The notes below the pieces were generated by a model. It made no database searches. It was not told the DNA's origin and saw nothing but the letters and a program-made list of their open reading frames with translations. 64,000 nucleotides of DNA from an uncultured Bacilli bacterium (GTDB lineage: Bacteria > Bacillota_I > Bacilli_A > RF39 > UBA660): NCBI GenBank assembly GCA_934163035.1, contig CAKPJX010000003.1, positions 3,992-67,991 on the forward strand, read 5' to 3'. Shown here piece by piece: positions 44,735 through 64,000 of this stretch. The position numbers and the translations under genes were made by a program. How positions within the stretch are numbered: the stretch's first letter is position 1; each line of letters opens with the position of its first letter.

Positions 44735-46438
44735 TTAATTAAATTCTACTAAATCACCAAATAATTTAACAGCTTCATTTTGTATTATATCATCATTTTC
44801 TAAATCATCAAACAATTCTTTTGGTTCTTCCATAACAGTATAGTTTTTTCCAGATCTAATTGCAGAAATATACTTACTTTTTTCTTCATTCCATACATCA
44901 TCACTAATAAAGGCCAATTTTTTATTAGAATTTGTTATTTTATTGAAAACTGCACTAATCTTGTCAATGATTTCTAAGTTTTTTTTCACAATTGAATCAT
45001 ATTCAAAACTTATTATAATATTATTAGTAGATGATGCTCTTATTTTTCCGTCAAGTAAACTACAAACCAAGTAACCTATTTTCTTATCAAATGTATAATC
45101 CTTCAACAATTCAAATTTTTGTTGATCATTTCTTAAAATGCTCTTGTCTGCTAACGCCAACGTATTATTAACTCTAACAATCATTATTTCTTCAATATTA
45201 TTAGGAATTTTTTGCTTTATGTTATTGTCTGCCAAAACTGAATCATTTTGAACCGAACCAGCAATACCTAAATTATTAATTTTTTCATGATAATCATCAA
45301 TATCTTTATCAGCTGCATTTTTTACATCAACAAGCGTGTTATTAATAACCGTTTCCTGATTAGAATTTATTTCCCGGGAAATAATTTTATCATTTTTACT
45401 AATAGAATCAACAAATCCAAGTAGCAATAATTCAAAAGAAATTCTAGGATTATTGCCTTTTTTAATATCGAACATTTTTTCGCACAACAATGAAGTTAAT
45501 GTTTCAACATCATTCAATTCATATGGACATAATGTGCCACTTATATAATAATCCACAAGCATATCTCTAAGAAAATACATAAGTTGAGAAGCTATTTCAA
45601 CAATATTCTTACCATTGGAATCAAATAAATTTATTTGTCTTAATAGTTCTGACATATTTTTTTGAAATATACACTGAGTAAATTTTTCCAGTTCTGAAAC
45701 ACCAATCATATCATTTAATTCATAAAAATCAGACAATTCTATCATTTCATTTTCATTCTTATAGGCTTTTAATTTATCAAGAATACCCAAAGCATCCCTT
45801 AGTCCACCATCAGATATTCTAGCTATTTCATTAAGAACATTATCATCTATTAAAATTTTTTCTTTTGAACAAACAAATCTTAATTTTTCAATTAAAGATA
45901 GCAAAGAAATCTTTTTAAATGAAAAACATTGGCATCTAGAAACAATAGTTTCAGGAACTTTTTGTGGATCCGTTGTAGCCAAAATAAAAATAATATGTTC
46001 AGGTGGCTCTTCAAGAATTTTCAATAAAGCATTGAAAGCTCCAATCGAAAGCATATGAACTTCATCAATAATGTAAACTTTAAATTTTAATTGAGATGGA
46101 ACAAGCATTGCATTATTTTTAAGTTCTCTTATTTCATCAACACCATTATTAGAAGCAGCATCCATTTCTATAATATCAATACAATCCCTATCCAAAGATA
46201 TAAGACAATTATCACATTTTTCACAGCAATTTCCATTAATTGGATCTAAACAATTAACAGCTCTAGCTAATATTTTAGAAACAGTAGTCTTTCCAACTCC
46301 CCTAGGGCCAAAAAACATATATGCATGACTAAAATTTTTATGCTCAATTGCATTTTTTAATGTTTTAACTATAACATCTTGTCCGACAACATCATCAAAA
46401 CTATGAGGCCTATATTTTCTATATAAAGCATGATACAT
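44735..46438 (-). CDS. dnaX: DNA polymerase III subunit gamma/tau
   Basis: ORF track. YRKYRP, Walker A GPRGVGKTT, zinc module CxxCxxC, DEVHMLS, SRCQ. Confidence 0.95.
   Translation of the reverse strand: MYHALYRKYRPHSFDDVVGQDVIVKTLKNAIEHKNFSHAYMFFGPRGVGKTTVSKILARAVNCLDPINGNCCEKCDNCLISLDRDCIDIIEMDAASNNGVDEIRELKNNAMLVPSQLKFKVYIIDEVHMLSIGAFNALLKILEEPPEHIIFILATTDPQKVPETIVSRCQCFSFKKISLLSLIEKLRFVCSKEKILIDDNVLNEIARISDGGLRDALGILDKLKAYKNENEMIELSDFYELNDMIGVSELEKFTQCIFQKNMSELLRQINLFDSNGKNIVEIASQLMYFLRDMLVDYYISGTLCPYELNDVETLTSLLCEKMFDIKKGNNPRISFELLLLGFVDSISKNDKIISREINSNQETVINNTLVDVKNAADKDIDDYHEKINNLGIAGSVQNDSVLADNNIKQKIPNNIEEIMIVRVNNTLALADKSILRNDQQKFELLKDYTFDKKIGYLVCSLLDGKIRASSTNNIIISFEYDSIVKKNLEIIDKISAVFNKITNSNKKLAFISDDVWNEEKSKYISAIRSGKNYTVMEEPKELFDDLENDDIIQNEAVKLFGDLVEFN
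45368..45383. other. Noc-binding-site-type palindrome TATTTCCCGGGAAATA inside the dnaX coding sequence
   Basis: A perfect 16-mer, with 23/24 identity to the 24-bp intergenic repeat at 47102, 47536 and 48074. It encodes ...IISREIN... in the variable linker of DnaX. Confidence 0.6.
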
Positions 46439-46495: not shown

Positions 46496-46945
46496 TTACA
46501 TTGTTCTTCTATCAGAAAAAAAACGTTGCATTAGACTTTTTGCTTTTAAAGGTAAAACATCATTATAAAATTCTACAGATGGATTAATTGATTCCGAATT
46601 AAATATTTTACTGATTATATCATAATTATTATCATCACTATTTTTTAGTGCTGCATAAACACGTTTAATACGGGATTGTCTAATTGCACTGGCACACATA
46701 GGACATGGTTCCAAAGTAACATACATTTCACAATCATTTAAACGCCAATTCTTTAGTTTTTTTGATGCTTTAATAATTGCTAAAATTTCAGCATGATTAA
46801 TTGAAGAATTACACTTTTCCTTAGTATTATACGCCCTTGATATTACACATCCATCTTTAACAATAACAGCACCAACAGGTACTTCACCGATAGAGCAAGC
46901 TTTCTGTGCTTGTTTCAGTGCCATATTCATATATTTAATATTCAT
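46496..46945 (-). CDS. tadA: tRNA adenosine(34) deaminase
   Basis: ORF track 46496..46954. HAEILAI and PCPMCASA zinc motifs. ATG at 46945 is 5 nt after AGGTGA. Confidence 0.9.
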   Translation of the reverse strand: MNIKYMNMALKQAQKACSIGEVPVGAVIVKDGCVISRAYNTKEKCNSSINHAEILAIIKASKKLKNWRLNDCEMYVTLEPCPMCASAIRQSRIKRVYAALKNSDDNNYDIISKIFNSESINPSVEFYNDVLPLKAKSLMQRFFSDRRTM

Positions 46946-46963
46946 AAAATTCACCTAAAATAA

Positions 46964-47038
46964 AAGTGCACATGAAAGGTTAATATTAAGGCTGCTATCT
47001 TCCGATTCTGACCTGGTTCTATCTCTCTCATTGCACGT
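46964..47038 (-). ncRNA. ffs: Signal recognition particle RNA, short 4.5S-type
   Basis: The minus strand reads ACGUGCAAUGAGAGAGAUAGAACCAGGUCAGAAUCGGAAGAUAGCAGCCUUAAUAUUAACCUUUCAUGUGCAC followed by UUUUAUUUU. The conserved domain IV (CCAGGUCAG...CGGAAG...AGCAGCC) aligns with E. coli 4.5S RNA. The 5' and 3' ends pair (GUGCA.AUGA / UCAUGUGCAC). Confidence 0.85.
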
Positions 47039-47042
47039 ATTT

Positions 47043-47071
47043 ATTCTAATACATATATTAATTTTTGTAAA
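47043..47071 (-). promoter_or_regulatory. Promoter of the SRP RNA gene
   Basis: The minus strand reads TTTACA-17 nt-TAGAAT, placing the start site about 6-7 nt downstream, at the first base of the closing helix. Confidence 0.55.
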
Positions 47072-47101
47072 CAACTTTTTTAAAATAAGTCTATTAACGC
47101 A

Positions 47102-47125
47102 AAATTATTTCCCGGGAAATAATTT
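47102..47125. other. Noc-binding-site-type palindrome 1 (AAATTATTTCCCGGGAAATAATTT)
   Basis: A perfect 24-bp palindrome. The core TATTTCCCGGGAAATA contains the B. subtilis NBS consensus ATTTCCCGGGAAAT. Confidence 0.75.
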
Positions 47126-47149
47126 AAAATATTAAGAAAGCAAATTTTC

Positions 47150-47169
47150 AATGTTCCACGTGGAACATT
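47150..47169. other. parS: parS centromere site 1 (AATGTTCCACGTGGAACATT)
   Basis: A perfect 20-bp palindrome. The core TGTTCCACGTGGAACA (47152-47167) matches the B. subtilis parS consensus TGTTNCACGTGAAACA at 15/16 positions. The one difference makes the site fully symmetric. Confidence 0.85.
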
Positions 47170-47261
47170 AGTAAAAATAGATATGTAATAGAATTAAAAT
47201 TAGCAAAACTAAAGTATTTGCTTCTTAGGTAACGTAATTTTACTATTAACACATAAACATT

Positions 47262-47283
47262 TAATGTTCCACGTGGAACATTA
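47262..47283. other. parS: parS centromere site 2 (TAATGTTCCACGTGGAACATTA)
   Basis: A perfect 22-bp palindrome with the same 16-bp core at 47265-47280. Confidence 0.85.
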
Positions 47284-47468
47284 GGTCTATATTAATGATA
47301 AATTAATTATATATCACAATTTCAATAAAAATAAGAGTCGTTATCAAGTCACTAATAAATTTCAAAGCTTAAATATTTTTTCAAAAACACCTATCATTAA
47401 AGCAAAGCAAATATTAAAATCCATATACTATAAATATAATAATAGCAAATAATATTTTTGTACTAAGC

Positions 47469-47488
47469 AATGTTCCACGTGGAACATT
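47469..47488. other. parS: parS centromere site 3 (AATGTTCCACGTGGAACATT)
   Basis: A perfect 20-bp palindrome with the same core at 47471-47486. It shares the downstream 10-mer AAAAATAGAT with site 1. Confidence 0.85.
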
Positions 47489-47535
47489 AAAAATAGATGC
47501 CTATGTTGCTAAAAAATATTAAGTTTTATTAATTC

Positions 47536-47559
47536 AAATTATTTCCCGGGAAATAATTT
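47536..47559. other. Noc-binding-site-type palindrome 2 (AAATTATTTCCCGGGAAATAATTT)
   Basis: Identical 24-bp perfect palindrome; core at 47540-47555. Confidence 0.75.
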
Positions 47560-47570
47560 ATCTTAAAATT

Positions 47571-47598
47571 TTGCAATATATTACTCTATTTTTATATT
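47571..47598 (+). promoter_or_regulatory. Promoter-like module, copy 1 (TTGCAA-16-TATATT)
   Basis: Preceded by TTAAAATT. The 15-mer TTAAAATTTTGCAAT is repeated at 47752-47766. No ORF follows. Confidence 0.3.
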
Positions 47599-47759
47599 TT
47601 ATAAATACTTACAAGTAAAATAGTTTTAATCTTTTTCACATAAAACAAATATTATATAAATAAATCTATACTATAAAACTTGTTGAATTTTCTATATTAC
47701 CTTGAAATTTAAATACCATTTTCCATTGAATACCCATAAAATGAATAAAAATTAAAATT

Positions 47760-47787
47760 TTGCAATTTTAATCAACATCTTTATAAT
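47760..47787 (+). promoter_or_regulatory. Promoter-like module, copy 2 (TTGCAA-16-TATAAT)
   Basis: Near-consensus sigma-A hexamers with an A-rich upstream tract. No SD-preceded ORF lies downstream. It points toward the 3' end of gyrA. Confidence 0.4.
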
Positions 47788-48073
47788 TAACTTATATCTA
47801 TTACTCAGCATAACACATTTTATTAAATATATATTGCTATGAAACAATATTTATATTTTCTACTATATTTTTTAAACAATTAATAATCAAAGCTAATTTT
47901 CAAATATTACCAACTTTATTAATATACTTAGCAACAAATTTAAAATCTATAATCAATATTTTACTTTATACAACTTAGCATAGATGTCTTTTAAATATCA
48001 CTTTCAATTAAAAAAGACATTTTAGTGTAATAAAAAAGCACATCAAGTGGTGCGATTGAAATTTCAATTTAAG

Positions 48074-48097
48074 AAATTATTTCCCGGGAAATAATTT
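48074..48097. other. Noc-binding-site-type palindrome 3 (AAATTATTTCCCGGGAAATAATTT)
   Basis: Identical 24-bp perfect palindrome; core at 48078-48093. A 14-bp palindrome ATTGAAATTTCAAT lies 5 nt upstream (48055-48068). Confidence 0.75.
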
Positions 48098-48223
48098 AAA
48101 CATTATAAAAGGTAAATATTGCCAATTAAAATAGTAATAAAATTTTCACAACAGAAATTTATAGCATTTTACTGAATGATCAAAAATATATCAAATTGCA
48201 TACTTTAAATAATTACTAAAACA

Positions 48224-48252
48224 AAAAAATTATTTCAAAGAAATAATTTTTT
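48224..48252 (-). terminator. Candidate gyrA terminator: AT-rich hairpin with NBS-like arms
   Basis: The minus strand reads AAAAAATTATTTC-ttt-GAAATAATTTTTT followed by TGTTTT, about 90 nt after the gyrA stop. The arms equal those of the 24-bp NBS repeat, but the CCCGGG centre is replaced by CAAAG. Confidence 0.45.
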
Positions 48253-48338
48253 ATTACCGAAAAATATTTTATCCACAAGCAAAATATTAATAAAATCTTA
48301 AACAATTATAAAGAAAGAATAGAAAAAATCATTTTCTT

Positions 48339-50774
48339 CTATTCTTCAATAGTATCATCAGAAATTTTTTCCACAACAGCAACAGTTGCAACTTTCTGGT
48401 CATCTTTTAAATTAATTAATTTTACTCCTTGCGTTGCTCTCTTCAATAATGAAATCTGTTGAATTGGCATCTTAATAACAATACCACTGTCAGTAACAAT
48501 TATTGCATCACAATCACTGTTTGCTTCTACACACATAAATGCAGTTAATAAACCATTTTTATCAGTCATGTTCAATGCTTTGACACCCTTACTACCACGA
48601 TGAGTTAAACGATATTCATCAATAGTTGTACGTTTACCATAACCATTCTCAGTAACAACTAACACCTCTTCACCAGAATTAATAACATCAGCACCAACTA
48701 CATAACTTCCATCAAGATCAATACCCTTTACACCTGAACTTCCACGACTCATAGCTCTAACTTCATTTTCATCAAACCTAACCATTCGACCGTTACTTGC
48801 ACCAATAACAATTTCATTTTTTCCACAAGTCTTTTTTACACTTATTAATTCATCATTTTCCTTTAAAACAATGGAAATTTTACCAGTTTTTCTAATATTA
48901 TCAAACTCTCTAATGGCAGTTCTCTTTACGATACCATTCTTAGTAACAAACATCAAATACTCAATACTTTCATCATTAGAATCAATATTTATTATCGAAC
49001 TAATGTTCTCCCTCTTATCTAATTGTAATAGATTAATGATAGGTAATCCCTTTGATTGTCTAGAATACTCTGGTATCTCATATCCTTTTAGTCTATAAAC
49101 CCTTCCTTTATTAGAGAAGAACAAGATATAATCATGAGTTCTCATATAAATCAAATGATCAACAAAGTCAGATTCATTAGTAGACATTCCTTTAATACCA
49201 ACTCCACCACGATTTTGAGTTTTATAAGTATCTGCCTTTAATCTCTTAATATATCCATTATTAGTAAGAGTAATTATTACATCTTCCTCAGGAATTAATG
49301 ATTCATCTTCTATATATTCAATAGCAGTCATATCAATATTTGTACGTCTCTCATCACCATATTTATCTTTAATTTCAAGTAATTCTGTTTTAATTACCTC
49401 TAAAACTCTATGATCACTAGCTAAAATAGATTTTAATTCCTCAATTGTTTTTAATAATTCATTCAAATCATTTTCTATTTTATCTCTTTCTAAACCAGTT
49501 AAACGACGTAATTTCATTTCCAAAATAGCATTAGCCTGTATTTCAGTTAAATTAAACTTAGTAGTTAAGCCTAACCTAGCCTCATCATCAGACTTAGCTG
49601 CTCTTATTAACTTGATTACCTCTTCAATATTATCTAAAGCTATTTTTAAGCCTTCCAAAATATGAACTTTCTTCTCTGCAACATCTAAGTCAAATTTAGT
49701 TCTTCTTATAATTACTTCCTTTTGAAAATCAATATATTTAGATATAATATCCTTCAATCCGAGCGTCCTAGGTACACCCTGATCTAGCATTAAAAAGATG
49801 ATACCATAAGTCGTTTGAAAAGAAGTATGCTTATATAGCTTATTTAAAACTACCTGAGCATTAGCATCCTTTTTCAAAGTAATTGTTATCTTTATGCCAT
49901 TTTTCAAATCAGAATGATAATCAGCAATACCTTCTATCGTTTTATTATGAACGAGCTCAGCAACCTTATTTTTCAACTCCAATGTGTTAACACCATAAGG
50001 TACCTCGTCAATAATAATGTGTTGTTTACCATTTACTTCTTCTATCTGAGCTTTACTTCTAATTGTAATACTGCCTCTACCAGTTTCGTAAGCTTTTCTA
50101 ATTCCACTATTTCCTAAAATAGTAGCACCAGTAGGAAAATCAGGTCCCTTAATATACTGCATCAAGCCATCAACATCAATATCAGGATTATCAATATAAG
50201 CAACACATCCATCTATAACTTCTCGTAAGTTATGAGGTGGAATATTAGTAGCCATACCAACAGCTATACCAGTAGTTCCATTAACCAAAATATTAGGAAA
50301 TCTCGAAGGCAAAACTTCAGGTTCCTTAGTTTGCTCATCAAAATTTGGAACAAAATTTACAGTATTTTTATTAATATTTCTTAATAATTCCAACGAAATT
50401 TTTGATAAACGTGATTCAGTGTAACGCATTGCTGCTGCACCATAACCTTCAATATTACCAAAATTTCCATGTCCATCTATTAACATGTAACGATATGAAA
50501 AGTCTTGTGCCATTCTAACCATAGCTTCGTATATACTAGAATCACCATGTGGATGGTAATTACCCATAACCTCTCCAACCGTTTTAGCACTCTTTTTATG
50601 AGGTTTATCAGGTGTATAACCAGATTCATACATTGAATACAAAATACGTCTGTGAACAGGCTTTAAACCGTCTCTAAGGTCAGGTAAAGCTCTTGCCACT
50701 ATAACACTCATAGAATACTCTAAAAATGAGTCACGTACCTCTTTAACTATATTATTTTGTTCTAATCTATCCAC
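48339..50774 (-). CDS. gyrA: DNA gyrase subunit A
   Basis: ORF track. AMRYTE active-site Tyr region, and a QRDR-like [20 protein letters not shown] start is 7 nt after GGAGGT. Confidence 0.97.
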
Positions 50775-63613: not shown

Positions 63614-64000
63614 ATGGAAGAAGGAAAGAAAAAGAATAATACAGCTTTAATAATTTTAGTTGTACTGTTAATGGTAGTTTGTTTAGGTATGGGAGGCTAC
63701 ATTTTTATTAGCAAAGATAATAAATCAACTAATTTTGAAAAAACTAATAATGATGCAAACCGTGTTCAAAGTAATAATACCCAAAATAACACAACTAAAA
63801 ATACAAATGCTGAAAACTCAGTAAAAAACAATATAATAATATTTGATGGTTCAAAATCTTTAAATAGCTCTGAAAAAAGTTATACATTATCTTGTCAAGG
63901 AAATGCAGGTATTTGGATTAATGCCACACAAAAAGAGCTAACATTTAGTTTTACGCCTTCAAAAGTAGTTCAATTTTATCAGCTAAATTGGACTAGTAGC
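63614..64000 (+). CDS. Hypothetical N-terminally membrane-anchored, Asn/Thr-rich protein (5' part; runs off the window)
   Basis: Manual translation from ATG 63614, 5 nt after GAGGAGG, gives [82 protein letters not shown]... The frame stays open to the window end. Confidence 0.6.
   Translation, partial: MEEGKKKNNTALIILVVLLMVVCLGMGGYIFISKDNKSTNFEKTNNDANRVQSNNTQNNTTKNTNAENSVKNNIIIFDGSKSLNSSEKSYTLSCQGNAGIWINATQKELTFSFTPSKVVQFYQLNWTSS

Follow-up and report, generated by a model that had tools for sequence, protein, structure and literature searches.

The 64,000-nucleotide window analysed here (contig CAKPJX010000003.1 of assembly GCA_934163035.1, from an uncultured member of the Bacilli) covers the surroundings of a chromosomal origin of replication, where dnaA, dnaN, a small open reading frame (ORF), recF, gyrB, gyrA, a large intergenic gap, the gene for the signal recognition particle (SRP) RNA, tadA, dnaX, ybaB and recR follow one another on the minus strand; dnaN and recF are putative identifications, based on ORF size and on Pfam assignments in the syntenic locus L081. 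The gap between gyrA and tadA, which is the subject of this study, measures 1384 bp and is about three times as long as the next-largest intergenic gap within the window. A preliminary description of this DNA, made from its letters alone, had put every other gap at about 300 bp or less. The 1384-bp outlier was borne out, but the second-largest gap, located between dnaA and rnpA, reaches 474 bp (it contains oriC and probably rpmH), with the remaining gaps at 305 bp or less. oriC lies at ~55.7–57.6 kb, as given by the switch in sign of the guanine-cytosine (GC) skew near 57.3 kb, by dnaA itself and by imperfect DnaA boxes clustered on either side of that gene. The binding sites described below, which together with the gap we refer to as the island (47.1–48.3 kb), are origin-proximal, at ~9–10 kb from oriC.

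The gap holds three perfect 16-bp parS sites matching TGTTNCACGTGNAACA, which are the sole ones in the 64 kb and compare with a chance expectation of 0.06 (Table 1). Their 16-bp cores are the same as the parS oligonucleotide used in published work on ParB (TGTTTCACGTGAAACA). Three of the four Noc-binding sites (NBS) of the window are likewise found in the gap, the fourth being situated inside dnaX, and the 16-bp NBS cores, TATTTCCCGGGAAATA, do not differ from the NBS with which crystallographic and biochemical work on Noc was carried out. The preliminary description had listed the SRP RNA with its promoter, three parS, three NBS-type palindromes and a terminator-like hairpin, all of which were recovered; absent from it were a decayed NBS, a perfect DnaA box and the NBS in dnaX. 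The decayed NBS has an identical sequence in four strains, and strain L086 has CCCAGG at NBS2. Three contigs from other samples (L086–L088) carry the same gap with 98–99% identity and equal length, and the gap is therefore not an assembly artefact. One of the ~35 variable columns among these contigs falls inside a site, the 98–99% identity being too close for a comparison of constraint between sites and spacers. Separately, a same-species metagenome contig that is 99.6% identical over tadA–dnaX (L108:1-286, compared at window position 47416) turns into unrelated coding-like sequence between parS2 and parS3, reflecting either a rearrangement of the island or a chimeric assembly.

Table 1 Features of the gyrA–tadA gap and of its surroundings, with positions in the 64-kb window.
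Feature	Position	Strand	Description
NBS inside the dnaX coding sequence	45369-45382		23/24 positions of the extended palindrome; codons ~353-357; outside the island
tadA	46496-46954	-	ORF limits
Small SRP RNA (ffs/scr)	46952-47045	-	Rfam RF00169; 53.2 bits (gathering score 40)
Putative SRP RNA promoter, sigma-70-like	47043-47071	-	TTTACA, 17-nt spacer, TAGAAT; 10/12 positions, a consensus match only
NBS1	47102-47125		Perfect 24-bp palindrome AAATTATTTCCCGGGAAATAATTT
parS1	47150-47169		20-bp palindrome AATGTTCCACGTGGAACATT; 16-bp core starts at 47152; 46 bp from NBS1
parS2	47263-47282		20-bp palindrome AATGTTCCACGTGGAACATT; 16-bp core starts at 47265
parS3	47469-47488		20-bp palindrome AATGTTCCACGTGGAACATT; 16-bp core starts at 47471
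NBS2	47536-47559		Perfect 24-bp palindrome AAATTATTTCCCGGGAAATAATTT
Site-free spacer	47560-48073		514 bp (~515), 17.9% GC
NBS3	48074-48097		Perfect 24-bp palindrome AAATTATTTCCCGGGAAATAATTT, including the 16-bp Noc-binding site TATTTCCCGGGAAATA
Decayed NBS	48226-48250		Arms AAATTATTTC / GAAATAATTT retained, CCGG core changed to AAA
Perfect DnaA box TTATCCACA	48269-48277	+	Antisense to gyrA, 62 bp beyond its stop codon
Intrinsic-terminator-like hairpin of gyrA	48316-48345	-	13-bp stem, U-rich tail, overlaps the gyrA stop codon; -11.2 kcal/mol, z = -1.7
gyrA	48339-50774	-	ORF limits
dnaA	55825-57204	-	

The closest genomes belong to uncultured Bacilli of gut and rumen whose GyrA is at most 85% identical, including 'Mycoplasma sp. 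CAG:877', Candidatus Onthousia and 'Clostridium sp. CAG:710'; the Candidatus genera among the relatives are placed by NCBI in Bacilli incertae sedis, which may be equivalent to the GTDB order RFN20. We compared 80 loci around relatives of GyrA (70–85% identical), 50 of which had a complete gyrA–tadA gap, and counted their sites with one mismatch allowed. The 50 complete gaps (43.5 kb) contained 189 parS and 86 NBS, compared to 22 parS and 68 NBS in 981 kb of flanking sequence, an enrichment of ~200-fold for parS and ~29-fold for NBS. At least two parS were found in 44 of the 50 gaps and NBS in 31, and in five of the six gaps with fewer than two parS such sites were encountered just past tadA, in the tadA–dnaX gap. 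Closer relatives mostly mix parS and NBS, and the distant ones mostly have parS-only arrays. The suggestion in the preliminary description that the interval may be kept as a locus of chromosome organisation gains support from this comparison, as the position, the parS cluster and, in closer relatives, the interleaved NBS recur throughout a broad lineage of uncultured Bacilli while the spacers cannot be aligned. What is conserved between the gyrA–tadA intervals is the clusters of sites and the SRP RNA, but neither the spacer sequence nor the length, which ranges from ~200 to 2200 bp.

In some relatives the sites form regular tandem arrays. In the most extensive one, that of L034, a unit of 125 bp occurs 10.7 times, giving 10 parS and 11 NBS, the maximum of 21 alternating sites; this unit and those of 76 bp (6.4 copies in L016) and 118 bp (2.2 copies in L001) each carry one parS and one NBS. 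Three further loci (L004, L007 and L048) show alternation of parS and NBS without detectable tandem repeats in the spacers. When neighbouring sites were compared across 111 loci, 566 switches of type were counted versus 415 ± 13 under permutation; the corresponding values for an unbiased genome set with irregular spacing were 39 versus 30.7 ± 3.5 (p = 0.016). Tandem Repeats Finder detected no tandem array in the gap of the window itself, where BLASTN matches to the 80 loci were confined to the SRP RNA and to short stretches around the sites. These stretches comprise a unit of parS3 and NBS2 (69 bp start to start; 47470-47560), which shares homology with tandem units found in relatives and aligns at 73–78% to repeat units of L015, L024 and L012, and a unit of NBS1 and parS1 (47101-47185), homologous to the arrays of L016 and L020, which aligns to their repeat units at the same 73–78%. 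Weak internal repeats are also present beside the NBS copies, with residual unit homology in the ~515-bp spacer, a pattern that would fit an origin from duplicated units. The segment 47620-48058 had essentially no BLASTN match in the 80 loci, and when k-mers were used to look for a third motif shared among the spacers, nothing came up but fragments of the SRP RNA, degenerate pieces of NBS and weak purine-rich words.

Beyond these loci, 241 million metagenome records were scanned for the pattern parS-N(25-55)-NBS, which yielded at least 120 contigs. Among the matches listed, 114 have gyrA or tadA next to the array, and the others either have dnaX beside it or are too short to tell; the parS–NBS composite was found only at the gyrA/tadA locus among these matches. 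Thirty of the 80 contigs in the comparison set (e.g. L005, L008, L009, L015, L016, L020, L026 and L028) stop 3' of gyrA before tadA is reached, and all but one of these ends are at most 1.4 kb from gyrA, often inside visible parS/NBS arrays. Assemblies from this lineage are systematically interrupted at the arrays, and about one third of its contigs from metagenome-assembled genomes (MAGs) break just past gyrA because of them. Genes in the gap are rare among the relatives. L002 has an ORF for a TnpA of the IS200/IS605 type on the minus strand, 128-595 nt after the gyrA stop and thus between gyrA and the array, and L059 has two paralogous ORFs of ~96 amino acids (aa) at 278-921 nt after the gyrA stop. 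Neither these nor the other gap ORFs of relatives, which are palindrome read-through, gave any match to the gap of the window.

The DnaA box at the gyrA end of the island also has counterparts. Perfect DnaA boxes in the gaps of relatives numbered 25 where 0.58 were expected (~40-fold), distributed over 17 of the 50 gaps, and often lie 85–220 bp beyond gyrA, oriented like the box of the window (L003, L006, L017, L050, L054, L066, L069-L071). An NBS in the variable linker of dnaX was found in 18 of 48 relatives, occasionally in two copies. Across relatives this site is read as ISREI in one frame and as YFPGN in another, and its retention in two different reading frames argues for selection at the level of the DNA rather than the peptide. 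In the arrays L001–L210 the start-to-start distances of neighbouring sites peak at ~26, 37, 47, 58 and 69 bp, corresponding to n+0.5 helical turns, and the Rayleigh signal is maximal at a period of 10.5 bp, with a significance that is inflated by kinship among the loci. The close pairs of the window (46 and 69 bp) agree with this spacing, which suggests that adjacent dimers sit on opposite faces of the DNA.

At the other end of the island, the SRP RNA is conserved in relatives, and its 3' end adjoins the ribosome-binding site of tadA. The closest TadA in the database has 149 aa, placing the start of tadA probably at the ATG at 46945; with this start, the 3' end of the SRP RNA (46952) overlaps the tadA ribosome-binding site, and this overlap suggests that the SRP RNA is co-transcribed with tadA–dnaX. 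No other gene was recognized in the gap. As the preliminary description had stated, it is free of ORFs of 60 aa or more, the longest ORF touching it having 39 aa, and a renewed search for small ORFs preceded by a Shine-Dalgarno (SD) sequence produced no convincing candidate. A permissive Rfam covariance scan of both strands (E up to 5) left the SRP RNA as the sole family in the gap, with nothing else credible and no ribosomal RNA (rRNA), and ARAGORN reported zero transfer RNAs (tRNAs).

Proteins that could recognize the two types of sites were sought by tblastn with Spo0J and Noc queries, and neither the window nor any of the 80 gyrA loci turned out to contain a gene of the ParB family. In two sister species, L083 (88.7% DNA identity to the window) and the more distant L081, genes for a Noc-like protein, for ParA and for ParB lie after rsmG in this order, although L083 covers the ParA/ParB region partially. 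The ParB of L081, a protein of 298 aa, carries R173 and G201 and has a RRALGRGLEELF motif in its N-terminal part. The Noc-like paralogue (L083:7486-8781 and L081:10734-12038) has 431–434 aa with ParB_N/HTH_ParB, and its best matches in the PDB are the Noc entries 7NFU, 7NG0 and 7OL9 (1e-59 to 4e-56), compared to 1e-49 or weaker for ParB. According to the published specificity rule, QKKR (Q173, K179, K184 and R201) denotes Noc and RTAG denotes ParB. The Noc-like paralogue has Q, K, S and R at these four positions, whereas its partner ParB has R, M, T and G; the former thus keeps three of the four Noc residues, including both of the specificity-switching ones, Q173 and R201. The Noc-like paralogue begins MNNEIRDEVVYLHL and aligns from residue 23 of Noc onwards. 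Its gene start is preceded by a good SD sequence and by an in-frame stop 18 nt upstream, and the two sister lineages agree on the N-terminus. The paralogue is also devoid of the ParA-stimulating N-terminal peptide present in the partner ParB, and it contains an N/S/P-rich low-complexity linker of ~190 aa. In L083, a predicted membrane-anchored protein of 230 aa without a Pfam match is encoded between rsmG and the noc-like gene (L083:6534-7226), which is absent in L081; the ORF that follows rsmG in the window and is cut off by the window end (63615-64000) appears to be its counterpart.

In our view the gap is very probably a compact, centromere-like, composite ParB/Noc loading island of the chromosome near oriC, a reading drawn from sequence and comparison. 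The mechanism that we propose is modelled on the established behaviour of the ParB and Noc families. From the gyrA terminator to the SRP RNA promoter, the interval would serve as an untranscribed intergenic platform, with the three parS as loading sites for ParB (Spo0J), the interleaved three intact NBS and the decayed one as loading sites for a Noc-type ParB paralogue, and the DnaA box at the gyrA end. ParB clamps binding cytidine triphosphate (CTP) would load at parS, slide to the flanking DNA, engage ParA and recruit SMC, which would lead to segregation and organisation of the origin. Noc-type CTP clamps would load at the adjacent NBS and hence onto the same DNA as ParB, and both paralogues would therefore be concentrated at one origin-proximal locus. 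There, the Noc-like protein may be a fence for ParB, a partner in mixed complexes or a link to DnaA. The island itself turns over as units of 76-126 bp, with one parS and one NBS each, are duplicated in tandem and decay, selection holding the palindromes perfect while the spacers, of which the ~515-bp stretch is probably one, drift to an AT-rich, unconstrained composition.

Several points weigh against this reading. We infer the binding of ParB and of a Noc-like protein to the island, and its function, from DNA sequence, and to call it 'the' centromere is to extrapolate from ~80 kb around oriC. The presence of parB and noc in the source genome is extrapolated from a sister species whose RsmG is 93% identical. 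The Noc-like paralogue has S rather than K at position 184, and it is without the N-terminal amphipathic membrane-targeting helix, which is required for membrane binding and occlusion by canonical Noc (PMC8429893), so that classical nucleoid occlusion is doubtful. The order of sites in the window, N-P-P-P-N-N-(n), is less regular than in the arrays of relatives, and the interleaving statistic is partly due to tandem duplication and shared ancestry. Finally, the metagenome contigs were preselected for a parS–NBS pair.

The missing helix leaves room for a more specific proposal, which we put forward tentatively: the Noc paralogue would be a second centromere protein without a membrane helix but with a long disordered linker, co-loaded with ParB on alternating sites phased by n+0.5 turns, and the two would form, together with DnaA on the nearby box, a two-clamp hub for partition and the cell cycle at the origin. 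In such a hub the Noc-like protein could be either a 'proto-Noc' that predates the helix or a repurposed Noc. Conversely, the interleaving may create no second function. If dimers of the Noc-like protein bound at NBS mainly fence the sliding clamps of ParB, and the reverse, interleaving would simply set the size of the partition complex, the NBS acting as insulators or roadblocks. We consider this unlikely, yet several observations speak for it: NBS are situated on both sides of the parS trio in the window (N-PPP-N-N), the two site types alternate strictly in many relatives, neighbouring sites prefer n+0.5 helical turns, and, according to review literature, DNA-bound RepA attenuates silencing by P1 ParB, presumably by blocking its spreading. 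However, NBS are also found off the island at conserved intragenic positions (the dnaX site, and 68 NBS in the flanks), and since they occur there the paralogue has sites unrelated to fencing of ParB. Moreover, parS-only arrays suffice in distant relatives.

The composite-island reading assigns no sequence-specific role to the DNA between the sites, whose composition has to be seen against that of the window (28.6% GC overall, 28.9% in coding sequence, 23.3% in other intergenic DNA). The gap has a GC content of 20.5% and its spacers 18.1%, and four-fold degenerate codon positions in all coding sequences of the window have a GC content of only 7.7%, indicating an extreme AT mutational or codon bias. 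As the GC content of the spacers exceeds that of the four-fold sites, mutational bias alone explains their AT-rich composition. The preliminary description had called the gap extremely AT-rich, which is correct in that it holds the lowest-GC 500-bp stretch of the 64 kb (16.6%), but calls for qualification in view of the values for other intergenic DNA and for the four-fold sites. It had also held that easily bent or unwound AT-rich DNA between the loading sites would suit a chromosome-organisation locus better than a decayed gene. That the spacer is selected for curvature, for melting or as a second unwinding element aiding protein loading or origin function now appears quite improbable to us, even though the least stable 100-bp stretch of the window lies in the gap together with its lowest-GC 500 bp, and a DnaA box is present as well. 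The stability minimum is marginal (-0.968 versus -0.979 elsewhere), no 10–11-bp AA/TT periodicity or A-tract phasing was detected in the gap (p ~0.5), and the prediction of curvature and melting was thus negative; a GC content of 18% is not below the neutral expectation given by the four-fold sites, gap length and sequence are unconserved, and the DnaA box is single rather than part of a cluster.

The preliminary description had also left about 515 bp (47560-48073) without an assignable function, an assessment that stands. The stretch has no ORF, no Rfam family, no detectable BLASTN similarity to the 80 relatives and no significant structure, none of its pieces showing conserved folding superior to that of shuffled sequence, and a scan for degenerate sites gave one weak candidate only (47603, 8/24 mismatches). 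In all probability it is either filler under no constraint or an array that has decayed. The filler is without a sequence-specific role, but may possibly provide a transcription-free, neutral 'runway' for sliding clamps. Very improbable, in our judgement, is that this stretch or the whole island encodes an unrecognised small RNA or micropeptide, with parS and NBS as incidental neighbours. A few promoter-like hexamer pairs are present in the gap, e.g. at 47759-47787 (+) with 10/12 matches, and the segment 47560-47700 (-) folds somewhat better than its shuffles (z = -2.3). Yet the number of such pairs is at the level of shuffles (18 versus 16.5), the remaining segments fold like shuffled sequence, and neither an Rfam match nor an SD-preceded ORF nor any sequence conserved with the 80 relatives, at 70–85% GyrA identity, was found. 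The idea of a decayed gene or of an rRNA operon remnant (cf. rrnO after gyrA in B. subtilis) was rejected and retains next to no probability, for although the gap is unusually long for a compact genome and many MAG contigs break just after gyrA, as rRNA operons also cause, no rRNA or tRNA signal was obtained by Rfam and ARAGORN even at permissive thresholds (the preliminary description had seen none either), the contig breaks sit in visible parS/NBS tandem arrays, and the only gap genes of relatives, the IS200-type insertion of L002 and the two small ORFs of L059, do not match the gap of the window.

The parS/ParB and NBS/Noc systems are usually regarded as separate, with mutually exclusive specificities. 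parS sites are few and origin-proximal, and NBS are many and scattered. The lineage described here fuses both site types in one intergenic array at a fixed locus, and the regularity of the tandem versions suggests that the juxtaposition of parS and NBS is itself selected. It thereby offers a natural system in which to study how ParB-family clamps on shared DNA cooperate or block each other, and how Noc evolved from ParB, given an NBS-specific paralogue without an amphipathic helix. The same holds for why parS sites multiply and cluster, which is listed as open in a review of ParABS systems (PMC7333895). In practical terms, the arrays account for the breaks of MAG contigs just downstream of gyrA.

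Compared to known systems, the island resembles first of all the chromosomal ParABS system as represented by Spo0J–parS of B. subtilis, with which it shares the 16-bp parS consensus, the origin-proximal location and the multiplicity of sites, as well as ParA and a parS-type ParB near rsmG, here seen in the sister species. In B. subtilis the parS sites are dispersed and lie mostly within genes. In contrast, the parS investigated here are packed into one gene-free gap and mixed with the sites of a second paralogue, and relatives have true tandem arrays with up to 10 parS in 1.3 kb; for comparison, up to 20–23 parS are found in Streptomyces coelicolor and Listeria innocua (review PMC7333895). With the Noc–NBS system of Bacillus and Staphylococcus (Wu et al. 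2009; Adams et al. 2015, PMC4331003; Jalal et al. 2021, PMC8429893) the island shares an identical 16-bp NBS, TATTTCCCGGGAAATA, and the paralogue of the sister species occupies the noc position between rsmG and parA. The sites of canonical Noc are scattered over the chromosome, with a depletion near the terminus. In the present lineage, one origin-proximal gap has ~29 times the NBS density of its flanks, with parS and NBS in alternation, although dispersed NBS do occur (the 68 in 981 kb of flanks around the gyrA loci), and unlike canonical Noc the sister-species paralogue starts at the equivalent of residue 23, without a membrane-targeting helix and with a ~190-aa linker.

The tandem-repeat centromeres of plasmids (F sopC with 12 x 43 bp; the contiguous repeats of pSM19035, PMC9499535) have in common with the relatives head-to-tail units that each contain a ParB-family palindrome; they differ in that the present locus is chromosomal, that its units in relatives carry two site types, and that the copy in the window is without detectable tandem structure. 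With ParB–MipZ of Caulobacter, the shared logic is that the segregating origin gathers a regulator of the cell cycle, which is a functional analogy only, as no MipZ is involved here. Noc restrains DnaA in S. aureus (PMC5540599), and Spo0J and Noc jointly block Z rings in B. subtilis (PMC6852036); in the island a DnaA box co-occurs with the sites, and an effect on FtsZ or DnaA would be by analogy only. A literature search for parS/NBS arrays or interleaving returned no earlier description, its coverage being incomplete and thus no proof of novelty. All components are known from these systems, and what is new is their combination: an interleaved parS/NBS island, regular arrays of it in relatives, a fixed locus and a Noc paralogue without the helix.

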